Shown here in pieces: positions 3,551 through 50,117 of a stretch of 64,000 nt of DNA. Source of the DNA: a bacterium (GTDB lineage Bacteria > Patescibacteriota > Minisyncoccia > Phycocordibacterales > Zambryskibacteraceae). Every line of letters begins with the position of its first letter. Position 1 is the first letter of the stretch. The translations under genes and the position numbers were made by a program. The stretch lies in NCBI GenBank assembly GCA_030649135.1, contig JAUSGI010000006.1, positions 32,001 to 96,000 of the forward strand, in the 5' to 3' direction. The notes under the pieces are model-generated. The model saw nothing but the letters and a program-made list of their open reading frames with translations, was not told the DNA's origin and ran no database searches.

Positions 3551-3739
3551 TTAATTTATAATTGGTTTGACTATTGAACGTCTTTCCTCTGCCCGGGCAA
3601 GAGCAACACTAGCCAGTCGAGCAAGTCTCAACAGAGATACACCAAAAACCTGAGTTTCATCTTCACTCATTTGTTTTCCGTAATCTTTATAGAGAATAAG
3701 CCGAAGCTTCTCTATGGCTTGAGGTGAAAGAGTTACCAT
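3551..3739 (-). CDS. Small helical protein (~62 aa) inside the integrative element; function unknown (regulator/RDF-like?)
   Basis: Lower part of track ORF 3551..3796 from the internal Met MVTLSPQAIEKLRLILYKDYGKQMSEDETQVFGVSLLRLARLASVALARAEERR. No SD, like the other native genes. Confidence 0.35.
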   Translation of the reverse strand: MVTLSPQAIEKLRLILYKDYGKQMSEDETQVFGVSLLRLARLASVALARAEERRSIVKPIIN

Positions 3740-3987
3740 GCCGCGATCTCGTGGCTGTAGTGTGCGGTAACTTAAAAGGCTGCCACCGCATCCCACAACG
3801 TGAGATGAAATGGCAGCCCCTCAACTTTGCCTGCCCAGCGGGGTCCCACCCCCGATTTACTATCCTCGGGCTTATCCGGGGATACCTTGATACACCCCAC
3901 ATTGGCATGTATCAAGAGGTACGCTAACTTACTCAGTATAACAAAGTTTTGCTGATAAGTATGTGTAGATATCCACAGTAATAATGC

Positions 3988-4017
3988 TAGACAGAAAAAA
4001 GTTTGATACAATGTAAT
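3988..4017 (+). promoter_or_regulatory. Candidate sigma70-type promoter (TAGACA-18-TGTAAT) for the ORF-free structured RNA region
   Basis: -35 TAGACA at 3988-3993, 18-nt spacer, -10 TGTAAT at 4012-4017. Confidence 0.3.
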
Positions 4018-4024
4018 TGCTCTC

Positions 4025-4580
4025 GTGCATTAAGGGTGCATGAGCAAGGTCAGAAATGATAGCAACCGGCACTCAATTCAGATATGGCCTAAGTACCTAC
4101 GATAAACAAGTTTGAAGGAACCATCGTTTTGACTGGTACTTAGGTAGGGAGGAGGGTAAAACCAACTCCAAACCTTAGTCCCTTAAACTTTGGTTTGGGT
4201 GTCAGGCTGAAAAGTCTTACTCCTGAACTGAGTGCCGGTCATAGTGATGGTTCCTTTTGCTTATCCGTGGTCTAAAGGCAATAGGCTATGAAAAAGCTGG
4301 CTAGGCACATTTAACCCCACTGCCATTAACAACGGCACAATTTGGGGGCTGACAAATCTTGGGGCGTGGAACTTCTTCGCTCTACAGCATGTTGTCAGAC
4401 AGCAGCAGGCAACGATCAACGTACTGACCGCAAGGTTGGCACAGTTGGAAAATCGTCTCCCTGCTCCCGCACAGGCATCGCGGCCTCTATTGCCTAATAC
4501 GAATAATCGCCGTCTACCGTAAGGTAAACAGCGATTACTCTGGATTAAAGCAGGTGTCCCGAAAGGGACGCTTGCTTTTT
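4025..4580 (+). ncRNA. Candidate large structured ncRNA (~550 nt); class unknown, strand uncertain
   Basis: About 630 bp with no ORF over 60 aa in any frame. Long-range complementarity 4065-4080 with 4223-4238 (16 bp, one mismatch) and CCUAAGUACC with GGUACUUAGG near 4088-4140. GNRA hairpins UACC-GUAA-GGUA (4515-4526) and GUCCC-GAAA-GGGAC. Ends at a hairpin plus U-run. Confidence 0.4.
4548..4580 (+). terminator. Intrinsic terminator-like hairpin (AGCAGGUGUCCC-GAAA-GGGACGCUUGCU) followed by UUUUU
   Basis: About 13-bp stem with GAAA tetraloop and a T-run at 4576-4580. May also serve the convergent minus-strand gene 4639..5157. Confidence 0.55.
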
Positions 4581-5197: not shown

Positions 5198-6094
5198 TTA
5201 ATACCAACAGAACTCAGCTTTTTCTCCTATCTGATCTTCAACGTACTTCGTAGCAGTCGTGATATCTCCAATCTCATCAATCAGTCCAGACTTCAAAGCG
5301 TCCTCGCCTATATAGGTTAATCCATTAGCCAGACTCTCAACAGCCTTTAATTCAAGGCCTCTGTTCGTTGCCACATCCTTGACAAAAACATTGTGAGCCT
5401 TGCGGACGTCAGATAATAGAATCTCCTTTTCTTCCTGTGTTAATGGTTTGTTTGGATCACCAGTATCCTTATATTTAGCAGAAGAGAGTTCTACGAATGT
5501 GTAACCGTCCTTTGCGTTTTTATTGGATTCATTTAGATAAGAAGCTGTTACCCCAATACCTCCCACATCAGAGATTTTAGAAGCGTATATTTTATCCGCA
5601 CCGGTAGCCGCCCAGTAGGCAGCCGAAGCTCCAATACCTCGTATGACAGCCACGCTTGGTTTATCAAGACTTTTTAATGCTCGCGCTATTTCCTCTCCAG
5701 CTACTCCATCACCTCCGGGTGAGTCAATCGACAACATCACTGCTTTGATATCTGGATCATTTTGAGCACGTAGTATCCCATACACGATATCTTCTGACGA
5801 GGAAACATCCACTTCCTGTCCCTCTGGCTGGCTTGGTAAGTATGTACTCAAGTACCCTTTGATTGAGAATGCCAAGACATTACAGTCATCCTGTTGTAAT
5901 GAGTCAGTGATAGTAGTCTCTTCAGAAAAGTATGATCCTGCAAGAAAAGCCAGCACTCCAATAACTACAGCTAGTATGAGTACTTTCTTCTTGCTGATCT
6001 TTTTCTCCTCGTTCATATTCAAGATTATAGCTCTATTTCTTAATATATTCCCTATTCCTTTCCTTATGTCTTTCAATGATTCTCTGTGGATCAA
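5198..6094 (-). CDS. sppA: Signal peptide peptidase SppA-like (S49 peptidase, ClpP/crotonase fold)
   Basis: Motifs SIDSPGGDGVAG and GIGASAAYWAATGADKIYA with an N-terminal TM helix. Likely true start at the internal Met (MNEEKK, coordinate 6016), which would remove the overlap with 6033..6473. Confidence 0.75.
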   Translation of the reverse strand: MIHRESLKDIRKGIGNILRNRAIILNMNEEKKISKKKVLILAVVIGVLAFLAGSYFSEETTITDSLQQDDCNVLAFSIKGYLSTYLPSQPEGQEVDVSSSEDIVYGILRAQNDPDIKAVMLSIDSPGGDGVAGEEIARALKSLDKPSVAVIRGIGASAAYWAATGADKIYASKISDVGGIGVTASYLNESNKNAKDGYTFVELSSAKYKDTGDPNKPLTQEEKEILLSDVRKAHNVFVKDVATNRGLELKAVESLANGLTYIGEDALKSGLIDEIGDITTATKYVEDQIGEKAEFCWY

Positions 6095-6473
6095 AGGCTT
6101 TGCTTAATGGCATTGATGTTTCGAATTGAAAACTATTTTTAATGGCAGTCATAAGCTCCGGCCATTCCGGTATATATTCGCTATCAATCTCCTCATCAAT
6201 AGCTTCAGATATTTTACGTATTATTTCATCTTCATATATAGAGGTGTAATCATCTGTATCCATAAGATCACTAAGAGCGTCATCGTGGTACCTCTTAAGA
6301 AGAGCTAAATTAAGTTCCTCTGCTTTTTTTAGATTTTCCATATCAGCATCCAATGCTAGTCTCAGAATCACATTGCTCTTAAAGCTTTGGTATTTAGATA
6401 ATCTGTCAATCGTTCTAAGGAGTCTAAACCAGAGGATGAATAATACGGCAAGTAGTATATAGATTAATGTCAT
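6033..6473 (-). CDS. Hypothetical membrane-anchored protein (146 aa), acidic C-terminal region
   Basis: N-terminal TM helix LIYILLAVLFILWF. No recognisable domain. Confidence 0.45.
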   Translation of the reverse strand: MTLIYILLAVLFILWFRLLRTIDRLSKYQSFKSNVILRLALDADMENLKKAEELNLALLKRYHDDALSDLMDTDDYTSIYEDEIIRKISEAIDEEIDSEYIPEWPELMTAIKNSFQFETSMPLSKAFDPQRIIERHKERNREYIKK

Positions 6474-6475
6474 AA

Positions 6476-7417
6476 TTAATAAAAGATTGGCTTTTCACAA
6501 TACCAAGAATAGTTAGTCGGGTTTTTGTTAACACACTCTTGATATTGTTGCTGTTGGTATAGTTTGTATTCTAGATCGCTTTGTGGAGTATTAGTCCCGC
6601 ATTTAACCTCCCTGATTCTTCTTTGTTGTTGCGGAGATAGAGTTCGTAGTTCTGGCGGAGTAGGTTCTAATAAACAATCTGATTGTTGTTTTTGGGCTGT
6701 TATTGACTGTTGTTGCTGTTCACTTTTTGCCTTGTTATATTTCTCAACCTGAGCATCAATAAGTATTCGAAAACTCATATTACTCATGTAGCCATCGAGA
6801 AATTTAGAGTCTTTGCACGTTAGTGAGTTCACTTCTGGAACTTCCCCGCACATTTTAAACAGAGCACCCAGTTGTTGTGCCGTGGGAGGGGTAGCATACG
6901 GTTGTTGTATTTCCGCTTTGCTGTTCTTGCGAACCCACTGATTGCTTTCCTTTCTGTAGTATCTTTCTTCCCTCTGACGAGTAATGGAAATGGATGTCCA
7001 TCCCTTTGAATCAGCTTCGATGAAGAATCTTCGCTCCAGACTTTCCCAGGTCTCGACAGCAGGTGTCGCGATGTTTGAAGTAGTTATATTATTTATCGGT
7101 AGTGTCTCTTTTTCTATATTGTTTGCAGTAGACTGTTTCTCTTTTAACTTTTCTACCTCTCTTTTCAGCTTTTCAATTTCAACACTTTGATTGTCTACTA
7201 CGGGTACTGGTTGTACTTTTTCTGTAGTTACTGTTGGTTTTTCTACTTTATTCGGAACTACTACCGAAGAGGTTGCACTCTCGCTCGGCACTGGTTGTTC
7301 GATTTTTACTTCTTGCTTCTTATTAAATATTCTCCATGTAAATGGATTCCACCATGCCGCAAAAGCCACCTGAGGAATTATTATCGCAAGTAGGATTATT
7401 GGAATTATTTTTTTCAT
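6476..7417 (-). CDS. Hypothetical secreted protein (313 aa), Q/T-rich, several Cys pairs
   Basis: Signal peptide MKKIIPIILLAIIIPQVAFA. Its start overlaps the downstream 72-aa gene by 4 nt (ATGA), suggesting translational coupling. Confidence 0.55.
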   Translation of the reverse strand: MKKIIPIILLAIIIPQVAFAAWWNPFTWRIFNKKQEVKIEQPVPSESATSSVVVPNKVEKPTVTTEKVQPVPVVDNQSVEIEKLKREVEKLKEKQSTANNIEKETLPINNITTSNIATPAVETWESLERRFFIEADSKGWTSISITRQREERYYRKESNQWVRKNSKAEIQQPYATPPTAQQLGALFKMCGEVPEVNSLTCKDSKFLDGYMSNMSFRILIDAQVEKYNKAKSEQQQQSITAQKQQSDCLLEPTPPELRTLSPQQQRRIREVKCGTNTPQSDLEYKLYQQQQYQECVNKNPTNYSWYCEKPIFY

Positions 7418-7632
7418 AATTTTGGGGGAATTTCGTCGACTTTCTTTTTGTTAAGTTTGTAGTTCAAGTGAGAATAAAGAACTATGCCTAGTGGCCAGAT
7501 TAATGCTCCTGCCAAGGCCGCAATGATTTTGTTCATATTGTGTCTCTGAGCAACTCTATAACAATAAACACCAGACCAAATAACCATCACCACACCTACT
7601 AAGTACAGAAGACCACCTAGTACAGATCCCAT
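7414..7632 (-). CDS. Small 2-TM membrane protein, PLD-nuclease N-terminal (PLDc_N)-like
   Basis: 72 aa. Motif KIIAALAGALIWPLGIVLYSHL matches the K..W..P..G..Y pattern of PLDc_N-family small membrane proteins. Preceded by structured RNA copy A. Confidence 0.5.
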   Translation of the reverse strand: MGSVLGGLLYLVGVVMVIWSGVYCYRVAQRHNMNKIIAALAGALIWPLGIVLYSHLNYKLNKKKVDEIPPKL

Positions 7633-7657
7633 TTTATTTTAGTGATTATTTATAACA

Positions 7658-7792
7658 CAAAGCCCGCTACCAGGAAGGCGCCTTTCGACCACCTCTACCA
7701 GAGTTTCCCCTGGTAACGCGACGAACGCCCTGATAACGGGTTCTCTATGTTCGTCGCGCTTTCTTGCCATGCCGGTGGTTGCCCGGTTTAGG
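7658..7792 (-). ncRNA. Conserved structured RNA motif, copy A (candidate cis-regulatory leader or riboswitch-like element)
   Basis: Shares conserved blocks (CCUAAACCGGGCA..CCGGCAUGGCAAGAAAG and CUGGUAGCGGGCUUU) and two covarying stems with copy B at 9021-9152. Sits in the 5' UTR of the 72-aa membrane-protein gene. G-U pairs appear only in the minus-strand reading. Confidence 0.5.
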
Positions 7793-7836
7793 TTTGTCGC
7801 ACATCCACAGTTGCATAATTCTATGGATGTTCTGAA

Positions 7837-7899
7837 AAGTTGAGCTTCGTTAGAGTCCTGTTTCTTATCTGATACTCTAGCTAAGGTAATTGCTTTCAT
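7837..7899 (-). pseudogene. Resolvase-like N-terminal remnant (MKAITLARVSDKKQDSNEAQL); the rest of ORF 7639..7899 reads through RNA copy A
   Basis: The first ~21 codons match the small serine recombinase catalytic motif (x-ARVS-xxxQ). Downstream sequence has no recombinase similarity. Confidence 0.25.
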
Positions 7900-7907
7900 A
7901 AAGTATT

Positions 7908-8678
7908 TTAGTAGTAAATATCTTTAAGCAATTTAGCGTTGTAACCAGAATTTTCAAAGATATATTTAGCATAACTCTTTTGACCTTCCGTAACAGCTTT
8001 GTCAGCTTCTTCTTTGCTTAAAGAAGGATCCAGCCAATACCAACTAGGATAATCTCCTAACTGCTTATTAGAAGATACATCGTAAATCTTGTCTGATTTT
8101 TTCGTGTAATACTCGCTTTTTACGTTGTTATAATTACTGTAATCGTAACTATAATCAGTAGTATAAAGGCAAGTGTTCATTGAAGGACTGTAGAAAATAA
8201 AATTTAACTCTTCTTTTTCTGTTACAAAAGTGGTGTTTTTATATTTTTTAGAAAGTTCATCTTTGATGTTACTGGTTAATTTCGCACATTCAGTGTTTTT
8301 ACTAAACAAAGTATCTTTATCAATTTTAGAGTTCTTAACCAAGTCCGCTACATCCTTTTTTAGTTGAGCAAGTATATCCTTCGTAGCTGGGTCTGCTTTA
8401 ATTTCATCCGACATTGTAAGTATCAATGTGTTCTGTATTTTTGAGTCTTCCTTGTCGGCTTCTTCAGCAACCTTTTTTATTCTTTCATCAACTATCTTGT
8501 ATTTATCTTCTGGCAAAAGACTTTTATAAACATTTAAGTACTTATAAAATTCAACATCTTCGTTTGTACCAGAGTCTGCAACTTTGATAGAAGACATATT
8601 GGTTTTTCCTTTAACAAAAGGTATTCCGAGCCAAACAATTATTACCACAAGAACAACGATAATTATATTTTTAATCAT
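7908..8678 (-). CDS. Hypothetical membrane-anchored K/D/Y-rich protein (256 aa)
   Basis: N-terminal TM helix IIIVVLVVIIVWLGIPFV. Low-complexity Y/S/N-rich C-terminal part. Confidence 0.55.
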   Translation of the reverse strand: MIKNIIIVVLVVIIVWLGIPFVKGKTNMSSIKVADSGTNEDVEFYKYLNVYKSLLPEDKYKIVDERIKKVAEEADKEDSKIQNTLILTMSDEIKADPATKDILAQLKKDVADLVKNSKIDKDTLFSKNTECAKLTSNIKDELSKKYKNTTFVTEKEELNFIFYSPSMNTCLYTTDYSYDYSNYNNVKSEYYTKKSDKIYDVSSNKQLGDYPSWYWLDPSLSKEEADKAVTEGQKSYAKYIFENSGYNAKLLKDIYY

Positions 8679-8687
8679 ATTATTTTG

Positions 8688-8990
8688 TTATTTATTAAAT
8701 TCAAACCGACCGAAGAACCAAGAGAGTAAGCTTCTACTCCTCATTTTAAAGAAATAGCTTATGGAAATATAACCTGTCACTGCTGATATAAATCCCTCAA
8801 AAATACTTTCGGTAAATAGATAAATGACTATCCCAATGATGATCAGGGATAGGATGACTATGAATAGGTCAGCTAGTTTGGCCAGAATATAACGTACGAA
8901 TAGTTGACCACGACCCCTCTCCTTTATTGCTCTTAATTCTTCAAGGGCATCTCTCGCTATACCGTTAGCTTTAGATATATGTTCTTCCAT
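8688..8990 (-). CDS. Small 2-TM membrane protein (~100 aa); track ORF 8688..9089 trimmed to the internal Met
   Basis: The first 33 codons of the track ORF read through RNA copy B. Real start likely MEEHISKANG at 8990. TM segments LADLFIVILSLIIIGIVIYLF and AVTGYISISYFF. Confidence 0.45.
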   Translation of the reverse strand: MEEHISKANGIARDALEELRAIKERGRGQLFVRYILAKLADLFIVILSLIIIGIVIYLFTESIFEGFISAVTGYISISYFFKMRSRSLLSWFFGRFEFNK

Positions 8991-9020
8991 ATTGTTGCTT
9001 GATCGTCTTGTAATCTTTTG

Positions 9021-9152
9021 CGGGCACAAAAAGCCCGCCACAGGTAGAGGCCGAGGCCCCTCATACCGGTTTCCCGATATGGCGATCAAGCGACCCTATG
9101 ACGGGGTTTTTACCTTGATCGACTTTTTGCCATGCCGGTGCCCGGTTTAGGC
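9021..9152 (-). ncRNA. Conserved structured RNA motif, copy B
   Basis: Aligns with copy A. Stems GUCGAUCAAG/CUUGAUCG and CAUAUCGGG-AAAC-CGGUAUG covary with the copy-A stems. Ends in the hairpin GCGGGC-UUUUUGU-GCCCGC just before the start codon of the 100-aa gene. Confidence 0.5.
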
Positions 9153-9276
9153 CTATTTTCTTCACACTACCATTTTACCAGTTTTACAGAGTTAAGCTAA
9201 TGGCCTCAAATGTTCTCCTTCGAGCAGGGCAACTAAAGGTGGCAAAAGCGGTAGTGCACGGTATACTTCTTCTAAA

Positions 9277-10497
9277 ATGTTATATACCAAGCCCATTACT
9301 GAAATTACTTATGTCGATGTCATTGACTTCTGCAAACAGTCGTTAAAAGAGAATATAAACCTGGACTACAAGCTGGATGTCGATACTGGCATAGCCAAGA
9401 CCATAGCGGCAATGGCTAATACTTGGGGTGGGCTGATTGTGGTCGGTGTTGAAGACGAGGATAGTAAGCCCAAGCTACCTGTCGAGGGTATTCCATATCG
9501 CGAGCACATTGAGGAGCAGATAAACAACATTATTCTAGGTAATATCACTCCGCCAACCTTTCCAGAAGTTAAGGTGTGCCTGTCTGAAAATAAAGAGAAA
9601 ATGTTTGTGGTAATCAGGATTCCACAAAGCAATCTCACGCCTCATGCTATTAGGGGCAATACCAGAGTCTACATCAGAACCAATACTAGCAATGAACCTG
9701 AAGAAGAAATAACTATAGAAAAGTTAGGGTGGTTAGTTGATAAGCGAAAAAAGTCACTCGACCTGAAAGAACAACTACATCAGGAAGCTGATAGACGGTT
9801 TGAAAAACTATGCAGGATACAAGGAATAAAAAATTTTAGACATAACGATGTTAGTCTTATGACGTCTCCTCTATATCCATTCGAAATTCTAACTAAAAAG
9901 GAGCAACTTATCAGGGAGATACCTGAAAGGATGCGGACTGAAGCCTGGGGTAGATACTTCCCAAAGACTTTACATAGAACAAGCTACGAAGCTATTAATG
10001 GCGGTAGTTATGCCTTTATCTCGAATGGTCAGTCAGGATACTTTCTATATGAGGAATTTAATCATTACGGTCTTTTTTATCATAGGGAAGATTGGTGTAA
10101 AAGTGATAAAGATGAAGAAACTGGAGAAATCAAGCACACAGGTTTTTTGCATAGCTATTTATCCGAGATAGACCTAATGATTGAATCCGCAAGTAAATTC
10201 TATTCTGCAGTAGGATACTGGGGTCTTGTCGAAATAAAAGTTATTGCCAGAGAGTTAGAAGAAGTCAATTTTAGGGATTTACCAGCTCCAAAAGGTTTCT
10301 ATAAATTCGATAAACTTGAGAAGAGACCCATTGATAATAATCTTGAATTTACCAAAGAAGTTTCGGTCAGAGAACTGGTAGAAAAAAGGGTGGCACTAGT
10401 AACATATTTGATGCTCGATTTGAGCTGGGCACTTGGCTTCACTCATATCGATGAAGAAGGTATAGGAAGACTTCTAGAGGAGCAGGGTCGTCTCTAG
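9277..10497 (+). CDS. Schlafen/AlbA_2 (divergent AAA, putative DNA-binding) domain protein, defence-associated
   Basis: N-terminal motif IAKTIAAMANTWGGLIVVGVEDED matches the AlbA_2/Schlafen core. C-terminal ~200 aa unassigned. Adjacent and convergent to the Type III R-M system. Confidence 0.7.
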   Translation: MLYTKPITEITYVDVIDFCKQSLKENINLDYKLDVDTGIAKTIAAMANTWGGLIVVGVEDEDSKPKLPVEGIPYREHIEEQINNIILGNITPPTFPEVKVCLSENKEKMFVVIRIPQSNLTPHAIRGNTRVYIRTNTSNEPEEEITIEKLGWLVDKRKKSLDLKEQLHQEADRRFEKLCRIQGIKNFRHNDVSLMTSPLYPFEILTKKEQLIREIPERMRTEAWGRYFPKTLHRTSYEAINGGSYAFISNGQSGYFLYEEFNHYGLFYHREDWCKSDKDEETGEIKHTGFLHSYLSEIDLMIESASKFYSAVGYWGLVEIKVIARELEEVNFRDLPAPKGFYKFDKLEKRPIDNNLEFTKEVSVRELVEKRVALVTYLMLDLSWALGFTHIDEEGIGRLLEEQGRL

Positions 10498-10689
10498 AAT
10501 AGTCATTTTGGCTCTTACGTGCACAGGACCATCTGAAGCATTGTGTCCGGTACCTCTTTCTCCTAGTAGTTCTGTACTATCATGGCAGTTCTTCCTAATG
10601 CTCGTTCTGGCTCCCTGTGATCGTTTCTGGTGCGAGTTTATCTTCCGTTGAGAAACCCGACAAAGAATCAGGACCAGAGACAGATATGG

Positions 10690-13203
10690 TCACTCTGAAA
10701 GTGAAACATCTAAGGATGACCTGAAATTTTCTATATTTTTATCTCTGATACTTTGGAAATATCCGTTGAAATCTGTCGGGGTAAGGAAGTTGAATTTGTA
10801 TGATATGCCTTTCTTATTCTTTCGTAAATACGCATTTATCCTTTCAAAATGAGCGAGCGCATATTCGTTTTTCTTTTTGTTCTCCACGGACGGCTCGCTA
10901 ATCTCGTCGTCGTCTTTAATCTCAACAATCAAAATCAACTTGCCGGTCTTGATAAAAAAGTCGGGATTGAATTTTCCACGCTTTGGATGTTCGCCTTTCT
11001 TCCAAAAATAATCAATCTCGTAGAAACTCATCGGCGTTGATTTAATCCATGCGTCAATGTGTTGCGTGTTTTCGGATTTTACTAGCTCTTTAACGAATCT
11101 GCGCTCATTGTCATGATCCGAGACAACAGCATTGAGCGGTGTTTTGAAATCATAATGATTGGCGACTTTTGCGCACTTAAACCCGCTCCCTTCCTCCACG
11201 GCTTCTTCGTAAAATTCTTTATACTCATCCGGCATATTTTCTTTCGTTTTGCTTGTATAGAAAATCGTTTTGCCATTTTTCAGGTCGGATGCGCTTGCGC
11301 TCTCCTGCGGTCGCTCGGTCGTTAATATCGGATAGTAATTTGTCGGCTCAAAATCATAGCGAACCACTTGCGCTGCTTTTCTTTGAAGCGTTCCGAGCGA
11401 CTGCAAAAACTTTTGCCGCATATTTTCGGTAATAACCTTGTTGTCTGTTTCTTTAAGCGATTTTTTTACAATTTCCTCCAGTTTTTCAACGGGAAATTGC
11501 TTTATGTAAAATTTGCGGTCTTCGCCGTCCACCAAATCCTCAAACCGCTGGAACATCACCTCGGCAACTTCGTGCGTGGTATAGGTCTTATGCTTGATTT
11601 TCGTTTTCCATTGTGTCCGCACGCCGGTATCTGCTTCCTCAAACTCAACTGTCATATCCTCCACAGGAAGTTCCGTTGAAAGATCAACATAACCCTTTTT
11701 GAATAACTGATATGGCTTCTCCATTTTGTAAGTTTCGGTGCGCGGCTTCGGATCGTACTCAATGTTCAGCAGTTCAAAATTAAATTCGGACGAGGTAACT
11801 GGAAATGTTGGTATTCGTTTTTCAAATTCCAAAACTTCATGGACAAGGTGTCGTATGTCATCCGCCCATCTATCATGATTGAAAACAGTTACTTCCGGTT
11901 GCGCGCCTTTCCAGCCGTCCGGCACGCGTAAGCCGCGCCCAAGCACTTGAGCGATAAGCAACTTACTTTCAAACGCTCTTTTTTCGTGGGGGACAATTTG
12001 AAAAACGCGTTTTACATCCCAACCCTCGTTGAGCATGGAAACCGACAAAATCCACTCGACCTTACTGTTTGCGTTGTTTACGCTTGCGAGGCGCGGCAAA
12101 TCTGGTGCGTCGCTATGAATAACAAGCACCTGTTCGTCAATCTGCTCTCGGCTTTTGCCGGTCTCTTCTTTCAAAAACGCTTTGAATTTTTCTGCTACAT
12201 CTTTACACCCACTAATATCTTTCGTAACGATAATTGTAAGCGGGCGCAATTTATGCGCTTTCAATTTGCGCCTTATTTCTTCGTGGTGATTAAGTACCAA
12301 CTGCCACTTTTCTGTTTCCGGTTGTCTCGTCTGCGGCATTTCGGCAACATACTGCACTTTCTTAACAAATTTTTCTTCCATTGCTTGCCGCAACGAGTAA
12401 CGATAAATCACATCGGAAAAATACTCGTTGCCGAGATAGCAAGTGCCAGAAACGCCAATGACATAACGAAAGCCGTAATCTGGATCGGTCAAAAATTCCT
12501 TCCACTTTTTCGCTTTGCTCGCCACTTCGTTTGCGACATGGTGCGTCTCGTCGTTCAAAATGAGTGTCCTGTCTCCTTTGCCCTGCAGGCTGTCGCGGAT
12601 TGACGAGCGCACATGAGCGAGAATTGCGTGATAGTTTTCTATACAAATACTGCCAGATACAATGCTTTCGCTCGCGTTTATGACGTGCGGAGCGTTCACT
12701 GCTGCGTTTGCGGGTAAAAGGTCGCGCAAGTCGGCGTTTCCTGCCAGTAGCTCAAATTTTTCCAGCAATCCGGTCTCTATCGTCGTGGACGGACACAACA
12801 CTAAAACTCTATCAACCGCGCCCTCGGCAAGCATGATCGCCGCAATGCCATACATCACATAGCTTTTGCCCGTGCCGGTCGCCAAATCAAGCGAGGCGGC
12901 GAGTTGGTCCGGCAATTGCAAATACCGTTCCAGATTTCCGATTGAGCCGTATTTATCGCGCAAAACTTCGTTATGCTCAAAATTCTTTCCAGCCAAATCG
13001 CGCAAATCCCGATACTCGCCGCCGAGTAAATACCGCGTAGCGGCGCGGATTGCGTCTTTTTGATACTCACGAATGCCGCAAAGCTCATCAAGAAACGCCT
13101 CGTACTTATTTTCGTCCCATTTGCGACGATCAACCGAAGTGCTGACATCAAGCACTAGGTCTTCATTATGAAATCGTTTTGTTCCGTTTGTTCTTCTTGG
13201 CAT
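10690..13203 (-). CDS. res: Type III restriction enzyme Res subunit (SF2 helicase plus C-terminal PD-(D/E)xK nuclease)
   Basis: 837 aa. Helicase motif I LATGTGKSYV and motif II LILNDETHHV. C-terminal NPDFF...LILIVEIKDDD nuclease motif. Immediately downstream of mod. Confidence 0.85.
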   Translation of the reverse strand: MPRRTNGTKRFHNEDLVLDVSTSVDRRKWDENKYEAFLDELCGIREYQKDAIRAATRYLLGGEYRDLRDLAGKNFEHNEVLRDKYGSIGNLERYLQLPDQLAASLDLATGTGKSYVMYGIAAIMLAEGAVDRVLVLCPSTTIETGLLEKFELLAGNADLRDLLPANAAVNAPHVINASESIVSGSICIENYHAILAHVRSSIRDSLQGKGDRTLILNDETHHVANEVASKAKKWKEFLTDPDYGFRYVIGVSGTCYLGNEYFSDVIYRYSLRQAMEEKFVKKVQYVAEMPQTRQPETEKWQLVLNHHEEIRRKLKAHKLRPLTIIVTKDISGCKDVAEKFKAFLKEETGKSREQIDEQVLVIHSDAPDLPRLASVNNANSKVEWILSVSMLNEGWDVKRVFQIVPHEKRAFESKLLIAQVLGRGLRVPDGWKGAQPEVTVFNHDRWADDIRHLVHEVLEFEKRIPTFPVTSSEFNFELLNIEYDPKPRTETYKMEKPYQLFKKGYVDLSTELPVEDMTVEFEEADTGVRTQWKTKIKHKTYTTHEVAEVMFQRFEDLVDGEDRKFYIKQFPVEKLEEIVKKSLKETDNKVITENMRQKFLQSLGTLQRKAAQVVRYDFEPTNYYPILTTERPQESASASDLKNGKTIFYTSKTKENMPDEYKEFYEEAVEEGSGFKCAKVANHYDFKTPLNAVVSDHDNERRFVKELVKSENTQHIDAWIKSTPMSFYEIDYFWKKGEHPKRGKFNPDFFIKTGKLILIVEIKDDDEISEPSVENKKKNEYALAHFERINAYLRKNKKGISYKFNFLTPTDFNGYFQSIRDKNIENFRSSLDVSLSE

Positions 13204-13205
13204 AA

Positions 13206-15077
13206 TTATTTTTTAGCTTTGGCACGAAGCACTTTTGGTGTAATGACAATGCGTGATTCGTTGCCGTAAATATCCAAAAATACGAGCATGACATCACCTT
13301 TAATTTCTTTGGTGGGTAGCTCTATTTTCCACTTGTTATCTTTTATCGCGCTCGCGTAAAACGCTTTATCCAAATCAAATACCTTTCCGTTGTAATCGTA
13401 ATCTACCATCACCATTGAAAGCGCGTCGTGCTTGCTAATTTTATCCTCTCCGCGCAGTCGCGCCTTGCTCTCAAACTTCTTTATTTTAACAGACACGGCT
13501 TGTTTCTTTGCGGCAAGCTCAAGCTCAACTACCGGCGGCTGGATAAAATCAAAACCCACCGCCTCAACGGTTTCGTTGATAGCCATTTCGTCGTTTGGCT
13601 GAACGAGCGCGGAAAATTTACGTCGGTGCAGTTCGTTGATAAAAGAATACGGAATACGAAGCGCGTAATATCGCACACCGTCCATTTCGAGATAATCCTC
13701 TTGGAAAAGGAACGCGCCGCGCGGAGCAATAATAAAGCAACGATCTCCAACGGCTTTTCCAATGCTTGCGTGCAAGTCTGCTATTGTCTGCTGGCTAATC
13801 TGTCCTTCCTTAAAATGATTGAAAACATGAACGCTTGAACCTTGTCGCTTGCCATCCATTTGGAAGCCATGAATTTTGTGTGGCTCGTCTTTGCACTCAA
13901 AAAGCTGGAGCGCAAAAAATCGCCAATCTTCCCACGGCAAATTTCTCAAATTCTCAAAATCATACAAACCAGCGTTATAAAGTGTGAACGGCTTGGCGGC
14001 AAGCGACTCACCAGTATTGCTGATATTTTTGCGTAAAGTTAGCATTCGTTTTTGAATGGTATAAACTGCGAGCTTACTTACATCAATTGCAATCCAGCGT
14101 CGCTCTAACTTTTCGGCTGTCGCGGAAGTCGTTCCCGAACCCGCAAAAACATCCATAACAATATCACCTTTATTTGAGGAAGCTTCAATAATGCGCTTAA
14201 TCAATGCCTCTGGTTTCTGTGTCGGAAAATCAACTCGCTCTTTTGAATCCGCCTCTGTACCTAAAGGATAAATATCTTCCCAAACATCCCTACATACAGA
14301 ATTGTGATACCACTTTTGTTTGTCTTTATCGAAAAATTCAGGATATTTTTCACTAAAGTTATATTTCTTTTGCTGATACGATTTGTAGTATTGTGTGTTA
14401 AAAAGAAAATTACCGTTTTTTGCGTAGTAATAAATATTATCGTGTTTTCTGGCAAAGAAATTTTTACTTACACCACCAGTCCTATAACTCCAAATAATCT
14501 CATTTATAAAATTTTGTTCTCCAAAAATTTCATCCATTAAAACTTTTATGTAATGGCCTTTCCTATAATCAAGATGCACATAAATTCCACCATCATTTGC
14601 GAGTAACTCTTTTAAAAGAATAAGCCTCTTTCGCATAAATTCTAAAAATGCGCTGCCAGCAATTTTATCTTGATATGCTTTTTGATCTTGGCTTCCTTTG
14701 AAATCTCGCCGTGTTGAAAATGGTGGATCAATGTAAATAAGCCGAACGCCCGGCGTGCCGTCGGCGTTCACCAGCTTTCCATCTGCTTTCATTTGCAAAA
14801 GCGTCTTTATAGCCTGCAAATTGTCGCCAAAAATAAGTTTGTTGTGCCAATCAACCCCGTTCTGTCCAAAAGTGCTGACTTCTTGAAACGGCACAGCCAT
14901 TGTGTCGGCGAGAATTTGCTCCTCGGTTTCTTTGCCGTTGTAGACAAGTTCGTACTCGCGGCGTTCGGGCGGAAAAAACTCTCGCGCCCACTCTGCCGGA
15001 AGTTCCTCGCCGGTTTCGGTCAGCTTGAGTCCTCGTTTTAGCAACTCGTATATCTTTTCTTGACGACGTTTGTCCAT
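13206..15077 (-). CDS. mod: Type III R-M Mod subunit (beta-class N6-adenine/N4-cytosine DNA methyltransferase)
   Basis: 623 aa. Motif IV IYIDPPF precedes motif I VMDVFAGSGTTSATA (beta-class order, motif IV before motif I). mod-res operon arrangement. Confidence 0.85.
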   Translation of the reverse strand: MDKRRQEKIYELLKRGLKLTETGEELPAEWAREFFPPERREYELVYNGKETEEQILADTMAVPFQEVSTFGQNGVDWHNKLIFGDNLQAIKTLLQMKADGKLVNADGTPGVRLIYIDPPFSTRRDFKGSQDQKAYQDKIAGSAFLEFMRKRLILLKELLANDGGIYVHLDYRKGHYIKVLMDEIFGEQNFINEIIWSYRTGGVSKNFFARKHDNIYYYAKNGNFLFNTQYYKSYQQKKYNFSEKYPEFFDKDKQKWYHNSVCRDVWEDIYPLGTEADSKERVDFPTQKPEALIKRIIEASSNKGDIVMDVFAGSGTTSATAEKLERRWIAIDVSKLAVYTIQKRMLTLRKNISNTGESLAAKPFTLYNAGLYDFENLRNLPWEDWRFFALQLFECKDEPHKIHGFQMDGKRQGSSVHVFNHFKEGQISQQTIADLHASIGKAVGDRCFIIAPRGAFLFQEDYLEMDGVRYYALRIPYSFINELHRRKFSALVQPNDEMAINETVEAVGFDFIQPPVVELELAAKKQAVSVKIKKFESKARLRGEDKISKHDALSMVMVDYDYNGKVFDLDKAFYASAIKDNKWKIELPTKEIKGDVMLVFLDIYGNESRIVITPKVLRAKAKK

Positions 15078-48233: not shown

Positions 48234-48309
48234 TGGAGCCGGAGGCGAGATTCGAACTCGCGACTTACCCCTTACGAAGGGGTTACTCTACCAACTGAGT
48301 TACTCCGGC
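48234..48309 (-). tRNA. tRNA-Thr (anticodon CGU), CCA encoded
   Basis: Manual cloverleaf: acceptor GCCGGAG/CUCCGGC. D arm ACUC-AGUUGGUA-GAGU. Anticodon loop UUCGUAA. T arm GCGAG-UUCGAAU-CUCGC. Discriminator U plus CCA. Confidence 0.85.
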
Positions 48310-48360
48310 TTACTGCTCTACTTCACCCCGCCTAGCCCGGGCGGGGCAAGCTGAGCTAAG
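48310..48360 (-). promoter_or_regulatory. Conserved upstream element of tRNA-Thr(CGU) with GC hairpin; second copy at 48472-48525
   Basis: Both tRNA-Thr genes are preceded by AGCUCAGCUUGCCCCGCC-(5-6 nt)-UAGGYGGGGUGAAGUAGAGCA, containing the hairpin CCCCGCC/GGCGGGG. Confidence 0.4.
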
Positions 48361-48396
48361 GTGGCACTACTTCGCCTAGGCTACGAAGTGCGAAGC

Positions 48397-48471
48397 TGGA
48401 GCCAGAGGGGAGAATCGGACTCCCGACCTCTTTCTTACCATGAAAGCGTTCTACCACTGAACTACTCTGGC
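48397..48471 (-). tRNA. tRNA-Thr (anticodon GGU), CCA encoded; T-loop UCCGAUU (C55)
   Basis: Manual cloverleaf: acceptor GCCAGAG/CUCUGGC. Anticodon loop AUGGUAA. T arm GGGAG-UCCGAUU-CUCCC. Confidence 0.8.
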
Positions 48472-48525
48472 TTATTGTGCTCTACTTCACCCCACCTAAG
48501 TCAGGCGGGGCAAGCTGAGCTATCT
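48472..48525 (-). promoter_or_regulatory. Conserved upstream element of tRNA-Thr(GGU); second copy of the element at 48310-48360
   Basis: See previous feature. About 90% identity over about 45 nt. Confidence 0.4.
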
Positions 48526-48600
48526 TGGCAAACAAAAGAATGGCTCTAATCTTATAGAGTTTAAAGCCCTTTTGCAAAATAGCGTCCGGATGACTGGTCG

Positions 48601-49485
48601 CTAATCGTCATCCTCCTCTCCTTCCTCATCTTCCTGCTTATCAAGCTTGTCTTCTACTTCCTCCAGACTTTTATCCGCCTGCTTCGCTAGTTGTTTGGCC
48701 CCTTGGTAATTTTCCTTTTGAAATAACTCTTTGGCTTGGGCCAGGAGTCTGTCAAATTTGGTAAAGAAACCCTGGGTCAGAACAACGCCATTCTTTTCAG
48801 CGTCGGCCAATAATTTTTGTTTCTCTGCCTCTGCTTCTCTGATGGCTTGTTCCGCGTCATCTTTCTTATCCAGTTCTTTCTCAATTTTGTCTTCTTCCTG
48901 TTCCATAGCTTTTTTCTGTTCGTCTTTTTGGAGTTCCAACGCCTTCTTCTGGCTATCTATATCAAGCAATTCTTTGGTTAAGGACTCCACCAGAGCGGTG
49001 TTGCCAGCTTGCCGAGCCTCTTGGATTTGATCTTTGAGTTCTTCCTTCCTGATTTTCAAAACTCGCTTCTGGTCTTTAAAAGACTGGTCAAGGGCACTTC
49101 GGGAAGCTTCAAATTGGTCATCAAGCTCTTTGGCAAGCTTACTGACATCTTTACCTTCGGTTTTTTCTTTCGTGATTATGTCGGAAACCCTGGCAAGGTG
49201 CGCGTCCATTCTGCTTTGGGCAACCTCAAGACCTTTGGCATCTATGCCGTCTGTTTCCAAGAGAATTTTAATCTCGGCAATACGTTCGGAAGCAAAACTA
49301 ATCTGCAGACGAGCTTTTGCCTCTGGACTGAAAGCCAGAAACTCTTGTAAAGCCTCACCCAATTTGTCCAAGAAATAAAAAGAGTTTAGCGGAGTCAGTC
49401 CGGCATTCGGCAACTCTGGCTCGGCCTGGGCCAGCGAGATAAACGGAACCAGCAACAAAACCGCAAGATATTTTTTGGTCTTCAT
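48601..49485 (-). CDS. Hypothetical secreted coiled-coil protein (294 aa), acidic C-terminal tail
   Basis: Signal peptide MKTKKYLAVLLLVPFISLAQA. E/K/Q-rich heptad-like sequence. Confidence 0.55.
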   Translation of the reverse strand: MKTKKYLAVLLLVPFISLAQAEPELPNAGLTPLNSFYFLDKLGEALQEFLAFSPEAKARLQISFASERIAEIKILLETDGIDAKGLEVAQSRMDAHLARVSDIITKEKTEGKDVSKLAKELDDQFEASRSALDQSFKDQKRVLKIRKEELKDQIQEARQAGNTALVESLTKELLDIDSQKKALELQKDEQKKAMEQEEDKIEKELDKKDDAEQAIREAEAEKQKLLADAEKNGVVLTQGFFTKFDRLLAQAKELFQKENYQGAKQLAKQADKSLEEVEDKLDKQEDEEGEEDDD

Positions 49486-49559
49486 GAATAAGCCTAAAAT
49501 ATTAATACTTAGATTATACCATGGTGCGCTGGGTAGTGGACCGCGGAACTAGGATTATG

Positions 49560-49790
49560 CTATCTCCTTTCTATCACAATTCCAATACATGCGTTTCCCC
49601 CACCAGCATCAGGGCAAGAGCGGCCATCGGGTGTTTTGCAAGAATTATCGATTTTAATTCCTAAACAGTCACACTCCCTGTGGATATACCCCCACGCGTA
49701 ATTCGTATAATCGCAAGATTTGGGATAAATAACATAACCAATAAGGACAAGCCCTGTTATTATTAAAATAATTTGAATAGTTCTTTTCAT
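49560..49790 (-). CDS. Small secreted Cys-rich protein (76 aa)
   Basis: Signal peptide/TM IQIILIITGLVLIGYVIY, then 7 Cys. Confidence 0.4.
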   Translation of the reverse strand: MKRTIQIILIITGLVLIGYVIYPKSCDYTNYAWGYIHRECDCLGIKIDNSCKTPDGRSCPDAGGGNACIGIVIERR

Positions 49791-49792
49791 AG

Positions 49793-49866
49793 CGCGGTCA
49801 ACCGGACTTGAACCGGCAACCTCTCCCGTGACAGGGGAGTGCTCTAACCAGTTGAGCTATGACCGC
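49793..49866 (-). tRNA. tRNA-Asp (anticodon GUC), no encoded CCA
   Basis: Acceptor GCGGUCA/UGACCGC. D arm GCUC-AACUGGUUA-GAGC. Anticodon loop CUGUCAC. T arm GCCGG-UUCAAGU-CCGGU. Discriminator G. Confidence 0.85.
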
Positions 49867-49908
49867 AATGGATTACAAATTAGCAGATTTTCGCCACTAA
49901 TTCAATTG

Positions 49909-49979
49909 TGCCGGTGAATGGAATCGGACCATTGTTTGAGGCTTATGAGTCCTCTGTTCTGCCATTGAACTACACCGGC
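49909..49979 (-). tRNA. tRNA with CAU anticodon (Met or Ile2); short, T-loop UCCGAUU (C55)
   Basis: Acceptor GCCGGUG/CACCGGC (G1-C72 paired). D arm GUUC-AAUGGCA-GAAC. Anticodon stem has an A31-G39 mismatch. Loop CUCAUAA. 4-nt variable loop. No CCA. Confidence 0.65.
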
Positions 49980-50044
49980 AATAGCCTTGATACTATATTA
50001 TGAAATCTTGATTTTCTCAATAAAAAGCGTATGATGGGCGGGAC

Positions 50045-50115
50045 AGCGGGTTGGAGGAGTAGTACCTCGACAGGCTCATAACCTGTAGGCATCCGTGCAA
50101 ATCGGGTACCCGCAA
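50045..50115 (+). tRNA. Non-canonical tRNA-like gene with CAU anticodon (A1-A72 mismatch, D-loop lacks GG, T-loop UGCAAAU), divergent from the previous tRNA
   Basis: Manual fold: acceptor AGCGGGU/ACCCGCA (6 bp plus terminal A-A). D arm GAGG-AGUAGUA-CCUC. Anticodon arm ACAGG-CUCAUAA-CCUGU. Variable AGGC. T arm AUCCG-UGCAAAU-CGGGU. Confidence 0.45.
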
Positions 50116-50117
50116 CA

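Follow-up and report, generated by a model that had tools for sequence, protein, structure and literature searches.

Several riboswitch classes, such as the preQ1-I, fluoride and ZTP riboswitches, have expression platforms that combine a pseudoknot with an intrinsic terminator. The cyclic di-GMP-I (c-di-GMP-I, or GEMM) class, which makes a tetraloop/receptor contact, governs a broad and heterogeneous regulon of surface, adhesion and secreted proteins that does not amount to one pathway. Here, we analyze two copies (A and B) of a structured RNA in a stretch of 64,000 nucleotides, called the window below, from a bacterium of the Zambryskibacteraceae (phylum Patescibacteriota; GenBank assembly GCA_030649135.1, contig JAUSGI010000006.1, positions 32,001 to 96,000 of the forward strand). 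Both copies belong to the LOOT family of RNAs (Rfam RF03000). With modest confidence, we read LOOT as a cis-acting attenuator leader that has its own promoter and stands ahead of membrane- and secreted-protein operons on a chromosome of the Patescibacteria type, that is, of the candidate phyla radiation (CPR).

The LOOT motif comes from Weinberg et al. (2017, PMC5737381) via ZWD alignments, and its relatives in the original description came from environmental assemblies, as they do here. In later sources, it serves as an example of a 'metagenomic-based' family (Rfam 14, PMC7779021), is among the families that gained two extra base pairs (Rfam 15), and is credited with six helices, about 43 bp and 28 'cross-covariations' (the CaCoFold paper). 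Its Rfam type is 'Gene; sRNA'. No function, host or gene association was found in the literature searched, a search that lay outside the details of the 2017 supplement. LOOT has thus been a known but orphan family since 2017, and the window copies are additional members of it. What the present analysis adds to the public model is an assignment to Patescibacteria, a covarying long-range helix (termed Pt), a conserved box at the 5' end, and a link to envelope and secreted-protein genes.

Both copies are LOOT RNAs, a membership of which we are virtually certain. An Rfam scan of the whole window (cmscan, Rfam 15) matched copy A at 7794..7675 on the minus strand with 61.3 bits (E 4.5e-9) and copy B at 9153..9046, also on the minus strand, with 64.7 bits (E 7e-10). 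Model positions 1-121 were all covered in each case, and both scores reach the curated Rfam gathering score of 46.4 bits. Besides LOOT, no Rfam family was found on the segment of either copy, even at E <= 10. The RNAs, which carry a short 5' leader in addition to the extents given, are delimited as follows:

7655..7793, minus strand: LOOT RNA copy A, from hairpin P1 through the U-tract (RF03000, and our own model R1 at 7795..7637, 115.4 bits)
9026..9152, minus strand: LOOT RNA copy B, from hairpin P1 through the U-tract (RF03000, and R1 at 9154..9008, 115.4 bits)

An initial annotation of this DNA had proposed two structured RNA copies on the minus strand, at 7658-7792 and 9021-9152, had failed to match them to any class, and had foreseen that an Rfam hit might reclassify them. 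The existence of the RNAs and their placement were borne out, the true extents (7793..7655 and 9152..9026) being slightly larger, and the missing class is LOOT. The suggestion that the two copies differ by compensatory changes, and are not a recent repeat, is also upheld: they are 54% identical across the RNA, and in the alignment made with our own model 16 base pairs are altered on both sides yet still paired, with 3 further pairs altered on one side only.

Relatives were found by scanning a viral collection, the GTDB species genomes and a metagenome collection for the exact sequence pattern of hairpin P1; loci are numbered with an L below. The GTDB genomes gave 43 loci with the pattern, about 25 of them LOOT-like by eye and by our own covariance model, and the metagenome collection gave at least 120, mostly LOOT. 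Among the 21 loci from the viral collection, LOOT occurred solely in L019, which has the same sequence as the Taylorbacteria contig L064; the others were group II introns, chance matches, or a phage hairpin that precedes a small CxxC open reading frame (ORF), and an Rfam scan of 17 of the viral loci returned no LOOT. The covariance model, R1, was built from a 26-sequence seed, which superseded a three-sequence alignment with a hand-drawn structure, and it describes helices P1, P1a, P2, P3 and P4 only. Alignment A4, consisting of 100 matches to R1 that derive almost entirely from genomes and metagenomes of Patescibacteria/CPR, is the basis of the family statistics given below, which are indicative, as the sample was seeded by one exact P1 pattern and counts related sequences as independent. 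When 20 of the loci other than the window, the weakest included, were re-tested against Rfam, all 20 exceeded the LOOT gathering score, and the Rfam match stopped about 38 nt short of the end of R1.

The hosts of the LOOT-like GTDB loci are nearly all metagenome-assembled genomes of Patescibacteria/CPR, including Saccharibacteria, Paceibacterota, Yanofsky-, Staskawicz-, Doudna-, Shapiro-, Uhr-, Zambryski- and Taylorbacteria, and Microgenomates. Two LOOT-bearing loci carry other labels, namely L024 (DAOSDI010000007.1, 'Pacearchaeota archaeon') and L025 (CAZUBL010000019.1, 'uncultured Gammaproteobacteria'). In L025, 55 bases of the RNA are present at the locus edge, and they agree at every position with the beginning of the Microgenomates LOOT RNA of L055, so that these labels look like binning errors and not like a wider host range. 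A separate observation concerns fourteen related IMG/VR contigs (L002-L010, L013, L016, L020, L021), in which a hairpin GCCUAAACC-N14-GGCAUGGCAA with the same receptor-like loop as P1 lies just 5' of a small CxxC...CxxC zinc-ribbon ORF; Rfam called LOOT in none of the 12 scanned (all but L020 and L021).

The nested part of the LOOT fold is laid out in copy A as follows:

7766..7793, minus strand: P1/P1a hairpin with internal loop CCUAAAC/GCAUGG, columns that are invariant in the 100 LOOT RNAs
7717..7758, minus strand: P2, CGCGACGAA (7758..7750) with UUCGUCGCG (7725..7717), enclosing an A-rich linker (L1) and the 5' strand of Pt; nine pairs, six of them compensatory between copies A and B
7696..7715, minus strand: P3 hairpin, eight pairs, GAAA tetraloop
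7676..7694, minus strand: P4 hairpin with GAAA loop, the final element of the Rfam model

Covariation supports this fold throughout. In A4, 97.1% of 3891 cells hold standard pairs, and double changes occur at 35 of the 40 pairs; no shuffle out of 500 matched these values, and slid versions were 33-42% paired. P2 is 99.2% paired, with double changes at all nine pairs, P3 is 98% paired, with double changes at all eight, and the P4 helices are 95.6-99% paired, with double changes throughout. The outer helices of the initial annotation can be recognized here, its Helix 1 being P2 and its Helix 2 being P3 with the GAAA loop, as can its conserved blocks, which correspond to the receptor hairpin P1, the loop of P3 and the 3' tail; the covariation that it had seen between two copies recurs across 100 aligned homologues. 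In both copies an A-rich linker comes after P1. The internal loop of P1, identical in the two, has a likeness to the 11-nt GAAA-tetraloop receptor (the CCUAAG..UAUGG motif), and a contact between it and the GAAA loop of P3 would possibly hold the fold together. A comparable contact in c-di-GMP-I riboswitches, together with their regulon, is a functional analogy only, since there is no sequence or model match between the two and nothing indicates the ligand.

The public LOOT model consists of 121 positions and six helices, has no pseudoknot, and ends at P4. It shares the P1 hairpin, the A-rich linker, a long stem, the GAAA hairpin and the terminal hairpin with the RNA described here, whereas LOOT as delimited by us extends about 20 nt farther upstream, to take in a box of the form ACAAYTnAATA, and 20-25 nt farther downstream, to take in the 3' strand of Pt and a U-tract. 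The strands of Pt in the window are:

7728..7740, minus strand: copy A, Pt 5' strand CCCGUUAUCAGGG (partner 7675..7663)
7655..7675, minus strand: copy A, Pt 3' strand UCCUGGUAGCGGG (7675..7663), then C and UUUGUGU (7662..7655), beyond the Rfam model, whose match ends at 7675
9095..9105, minus strand: copy B, Pt 5' strand CCCGUCAUAGG (partner 9044..9034)
9026..9044, minus strand: copy B, Pt 3' strand CCUGUGGCGGG (9044..9034), then C and UUUUUGU (9033..9026), beyond the Rfam model, whose match ends at 9046
9020..9038, minus strand: hairpin GCGGGC-UUUUUGU-GCCCGC, specific to copy B, overlapping its Pt 3' strand and U-tract

Pt is a long-range helix of 9-13 bp that joins the apical loop of P2 to the 3' tail (A4 columns 83-91 with 179-187), and we have little doubt that it is real. 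Because Pt was left out of R1, A4 was not fitted to it. The helix is 95.7% paired in the 100 RNAs, with double changes at 8 of 9 pairs; one pair, for example, is GC 32 times, AU 29 times and CG 26 times across the alignment. Its covariation score is 0.60, compared with 0.22 for shuffled alignments (none of 500 reached the observed value) and at most 0.12 for slid ones, and RNAalifold recovers it unaided from a plain MAFFT alignment. The family mean for the Pt duplex is -19.8 kcal/mol, as against -11.6 when partners are swapped between RNAs. In copy A, CCCGUUAUCAGGG and UCCUGGUAGCGGG form 13 bp at -21.9 kcal/mol; the 11 bp of CCCGUCAUAGG with CCUGUGGCGGG in copy B are present in its nested minimum-free-energy fold. 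Since the 5' strand of Pt is enclosed by P2, the two helices together make an H-type pseudoknot.

The 3' end of LOOT has further regular features. Pt is GC-rich at its base and is followed by one base, usually C, and then by UUU(U/G)UGU; at least five U occur within the 8 nt after Pt in 85 of 90 RNAs. Conservation ends at this U-tract, and the similarity between the window copies stops at the ends of the RNA. On the 5' side of Pt, the A-rich L1 (AUAnAGA) can pair with the U-tract, as 84% of cells do; one such pair alternates between A-U and C-G, a modest support that largely tracks two subfamilies. A pairing of the A5 linker with the U-tract was tried and rejected, as AAGAA variants do not covary with their tails. 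The arms of Pt are about 70 nt apart, around two hairpins and one strand of another helix.

Pt and the U-tract thus look like the anatomy of an intrinsic (Rho-independent) terminator whose 'loop' would be a folded RNA. A GC-rich helix base, one spacer base, five to seven U in 8 nt, and a 5' A-rich tract able to pair with the U-tract are common to both, but an intrinsic terminator is a compact short-loop hairpin. A reduced form of the same arrangement, here called mini-LOOT, lies at L052:2262-2373 (+), with the same sequence in L070, L093 and L176. It has a P1 receptor hairpin, a 6-bp P2, a long-range helix AUCCUCAU/AUGAGGAU and a U-tract, is divergent from a full LOOT RNA about 100 nt away, and carries its own TATAAT box and ACAAATCCATA box. 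As it has neither P3 nor P4, the GAAA hairpin seems dispensable for the core of the proposed switch.

The 5' strand of Pt has a second possible partner. The segment between the strands of P2 can form a local hairpin (mean -5.6 kcal/mol, mean z -1.7 relative to shuffles), which uses 1-7 of the nine Pt 5'-strand bases in all RNAs and at least three in 86 of 90. It is the inner stem of the Rfam model, drawn there with 8 bp; in both window copies that stem would contain many non-canonical pairs, and the predicted local hairpin has just 3-6 bp. The inner hairpin CCC..GGG that the initial annotation had drawn is, at best, this weaker alternative, its 5' strand being that of the stronger tail helix of 11-13 bp. 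Where CCC is replaced by CUC, the local partner is GAG in 13 of the 13 RNAs in which a local partner was found, and the tail partner in the same 13 is GAG in seven and GGG, which makes a wobble pair, in six. The local and the long-range pairing both seem to be maintained, as far as sequence variation can tell, and they are mutually exclusive, which is why we propose a switch between them.

In the mechanism that we infer, the local hairpin would persist during synthesis under one condition, leaving the tail free, and polymerase would read into the gene; under the other, the tail would invade, Pt would form, and transcription would stop at the U-tract. A signal, which could be a small ligand, a protein or folding conditions, would set the balance between the two outcomes, possibly by acting through the P1 receptor/P3 GAAA contact. 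Such a device would resemble the preQ1-I, fluoride and ZTP riboswitches in that a 3' tail docks into an upstream loop during synthesis, is coupled to a U-tract terminator, and faces a small alternative hairpin that competes for one strand. In those classes, however, a separate local terminator hairpin overlaps the pseudoknot, whereas in LOOT the pseudoknot helix itself abuts the U-tract. Their downstream genes differ, too: the genes behind LOOT do not form one pathway, and their context offers no candidate ligand.

A promoter can be predicted in front of most LOOT RNAs. In 71 of 98 distinct copies, the box ACAAYTnAATA occurs 10-23 nt before P1, with an extended -10 element (TGnTAnAAT) 6-8 nt farther upstream. 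The box is rather specific, 58 of its 88 occurrences in 655 kb adjoining a LOOT RNA. From the spacing to the -10 element, the predicted transcription start would be the first A of the box. No pairing partner for the box was found when it was compared by RNAduplex with the RNA and 60 nt downstream, the hits being at scattered positions and of weak energy. A simple promoter scan, which demands both hexamers, flagged none of the LOOT promoters. The candidate elements in the window are:

7804..7823, minus strand: copy A, predicted -10 TAGAAT (7823..7818) and degenerate 5' box GCAACTGTGGA (7814..7804), from sequence and the family pattern
9172..9180, minus strand: copy B, predicted extended -10 TGGTAAAAT, within a 123-nt divergent region shared with a Schlafen/AlbA_2 gene

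At L024:6289-6470 (+) and L123:6854 (+), a LOOT-type box ACAATTTAATT precedes a different GC-rich region of about 190 nt, which has GAAA-type loops and a canonical terminator at its end (AAAAAAGGCGG...CCGCTTTTTT).

The position of LOOT relative to genes was examined on gene calls made by a simple longest-ORF rule. The gene that comes next after LOOT shares its strand in 81 of 87 cases (93%), compared with 73% co-directional pairs in the same loci (p = 1.4e-6), so that the leader position noted for the two window copies holds family-wide. The gene upstream is divergent in 48 of 83 cases (58%), where 27% would be expected (p = 6e-9). From the end of Pt to the start codon the median distance is 42 nt (quartiles 31-64), too short for a separate promoter and untranslated leader. 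At L117, two LOOT RNAs lie in tandem 72 nt apart (3686-3847 and 3919-4077, +); the second has its own -10 element and ACAATTTAATA box, and the first is thus without a protein gene directly downstream.

The products of the downstream genes are coherent in their location but not in family. A hydrophobic N-terminal segment, scored by the crude rule of an uncharged hydrophobic stretch in the first 70 residues, is found in 45 of 68 downstream proteins (66%), compared with 152 of 739 other ORFs (21%; p = 2e-14). By BLAST the 68 proteins fall into 61 clusters, and the segment is present in 41 of them. Five of the proteins have peptidoglycan-binding domains and four are zinc-ribbon membrane proteins; the other recurring Pfam domains, of extracytoplasmic type like the peptidoglycan-binding ones, are those of trypsin-like and subtilase proteases, collagen repeats, DUF4352 and a secreted nuclease. 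The link to small proteins with two transmembrane segments, as first drawn from the window, was therefore too narrow, the downstream genes encoding diverse membrane, secreted and cell-envelope proteins. The window genes behind the two copies are:

7414..7632, minus strand: 72-aa protein with two hydrophobic segments, first gene after copy A, ATG 30 nt past the end of Pt
6476..7417, minus strand: 313-aa signal-peptide protein with an AAWWNPFTW motif, second gene after copy A (from the ORF list)
8688..8990, minus strand: 100-aa membrane protein with two segments, after copy B, ATG 43 nt past the end of Pt
7908..8678, minus strand: 256-aa protein with an N-terminal anchor, after copy B (from the ORF list)

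Head-of-unit position, a short gap to the start codon and a non-random class of neighbours favour a cis-acting leader over a free-standing small RNA (sRNA), and we hold with fair confidence that LOOT is such a leader. As Pt and the U-tract are the only evident output element and the ribosome-binding region is untouched, with the LOOT RNA ending about 30 nt before the start codon and clear of that region, attenuation is the favoured mode of action. That termination at LOOT is regulated is plausible, at a shade below an even chance. A bolder version, in which LOOT is an attenuator specific to CPR/Patescibacteria and not an sRNA, is riboswitch-like or under the control of a protein, the pseudoknot helix is also the terminator stem, and many copies in each genome respond to one signal over unrelated surface, membrane and secreted-protein genes, is one that we entertain tentatively.

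If LOOT is an attenuator, it would join the small number of regulatory mechanisms so far identified in CPR bacteria, and it would point to a common signal over surface proteins, which matter for attachment to the host; the bolder version would make it a switch that acts globally on what these episymbiotic bacteria carry at their cell surface.

Several points weigh against reading LOOT as an attenuator leader. Where the transcripts start and end, and whether polymerase reads through, is deduced from sequence. A terminator stem with its arms about 70 nt apart is unusual, and a hairpin-based terminator scan, which needs short-loop hairpins, found nothing on the LOOT strand. Pt and P2 could also be permanent parts of a single fold that does not switch. 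As for the genes, a minority of the downstream proteins are cytoplasmic (a DNA methylase and a T5orf172 nuclease), the genes as a whole are far more varied than a classical riboswitch regulon, the hydrophobic-segment rule is coarse, and the seeding by the P1 pattern and the kinship within the sample mean that the p-values overstate independence. Finally, the Rfam curators list LOOT as an sRNA, 6 of the 87 downstream genes (7%) are convergent, and at L117 a LOOT RNA is followed by another LOOT RNA and not by a gene.

The last three points are also the ones that fit a trans-acting, stand-alone sRNA, with its own promoter and with Pt and the U-tract as its terminator, for which the adjacent gene would be a mere neighbour in a compact genome. 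The -10-like box and the terminator-like end bound a unit of about 160 nt, the second L117 copy has a promoter of its own, and the genes downstream are very heterogeneous. Such an sRNA would not, however, be expected to show the membrane and secreted-protein enrichment described above (p = 2e-14); the excess of same-strand genes downstream (93% versus 73%) and of divergent genes upstream (58% versus 27%) marks the start of a transcription unit, and a second promoter would hardly fit into the median 42 nt ahead of the start codon. We therefore regard the sRNA as the strongest competitor to the cis-acting leader, albeit an unlikely one.

A structured 5' untranslated region (UTR) acting after transcription is less probable still. 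In this case, LOOT would affect stability, ribosome loading without a Shine-Dalgarno sequence, or the targeting of envelope mRNAs, and its U-rich tail would be a single-stranded platform. Leader position and a common class of downstream protein over 61 unrelated families speak for it; no obvious Shine-Dalgarno sequence precedes the genes after either window copy, and a conserved 5' box without a consistent pairing partner would suit a protein-binding site. Against this, helix, U-tract and flanking A-tract are what a terminator requires, and the RNA stops about 30 nt short of the start codon, off the ribosome-binding region; we know of no precedent for such a leader. The initial annotation had likewise supposed that a hairpin at the end of copy B could sequester the translation start, but this hairpin (9038..9020) ends 30 nt before the ATG at 8990, and its GCGGGC/GCCCGC stem is confined to copy B and its close relatives (such as L072 and L065) and is not a family-wide feature.

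It is very improbable that LOOT is a dispersed repeat, the end of a mobile element, a recent duplication without function at the RNA level, or a self-cleaving ribozyme. Several copies per locus do occur (the window, L117, and L052 with L070), and the window copies lie in a low-GC stretch beside defence-type genes. The two copies are nevertheless just 54% identical, with differences concentrated in compensatory pairs, every helix covaries over about 100 genomes, and the similarity ends where the RNA ends, with no recombinase partner; against a ribozyme, LOOT has no conserved core apart from the receptor module, to which its invariant unpaired bases belong.

There is hardly any chance that LOOT belongs, as a divergent form or a variant, to a known riboswitch class, notably the molybdenum/tungsten cofactor (Moco/Tuco, RF01055) riboswitch, for although both have a CCUAA..AUGG receptor-loop hairpin and a GAAA-capped hairpin in the same order, and a Dehalogenimonas riboswitch with 67.7 bits to RF01055 scores 34.8 on the LOOT model and 43.4 on R1, these common parts are a generic tetraloop/receptor module, the helix order, junction and gene context differ, Moco/Tuco has a closing P1 instead of the pseudoknot, no molybdenum-related gene lies downstream of LOOT, and a 1.6-kb search (7600..9200) matched the window copies to neither Moco nor any other riboswitch at E <= 10. 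The Dehalogenimonas locus, L056:4359-4507 (+), had matched the LOOT P1 pattern and lies upstream of a lipoprotein-type substrate-binding protein; its cross-score of 34.8 bits, below the gathering score, indicates that the receptor and GAAA modules are common to both families.

Returning to the genes behind the window copies, the 72-aa protein (7414..7632) had been labelled PLDc_N-like, a label for which there is no Pfam support at E <= 10 and none in NCBIfam either; a resolvase-like remnant reported near copy A has no Pfam match. The 313-aa gene is followed by those of a 146-aa anchored protein and an S49 peptidase. The 100-aa and 256-aa proteins after copy B are likewise without a Pfam family. 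A homologue of the 100-aa gene stands behind a homologous LOOT RNA, a close relative of copy B, in the metagenome contig L065. Together with the host range of LOOT, such metagenome relatives of copy B and its 100-aa gene point to Patescibacteria as the origin of the window. The motif of the 313-aa protein, A-x-WWNPF-x-W directly after the signal peptide, was seen in the window (6476-7417, -), in L058:3358-4113, and in L086 and L154. The proteins that carry it are otherwise unrelated, are encoded downstream of LOOT RNAs, and have no Pfam or NCBIfam match; it could be a CPR-specific N-terminal sorting or anchoring signal.

Beyond copy B, and elsewhere in the window, the following were located:

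9277..10497, plus strand: Schlafen/AlbA_2 protein (Pfam SLFN_AlbA_2, 7e-18)
10690..13203, minus strand: ResIII-type helicase/endonuclease
13206..15077, minus strand: N6/N4 DNA methylase
48234-50116: five tRNA genes, Thr-CGU, Thr-GGU, Asp-GUC and two Met-CAU, one of them on the opposite strand

The first three, at 9277-15077, look like a defence or restriction island beside copy B. GC content is 0.38 across 6-10 kb and about 0.46 elsewhere in the window, and positions 6000-11000 showed no similarity to phages. As the window also encodes RpoB, RpoC, LigA and a P-type ATPase in addition to the five tRNAs, it is part of a cellular chromosome.

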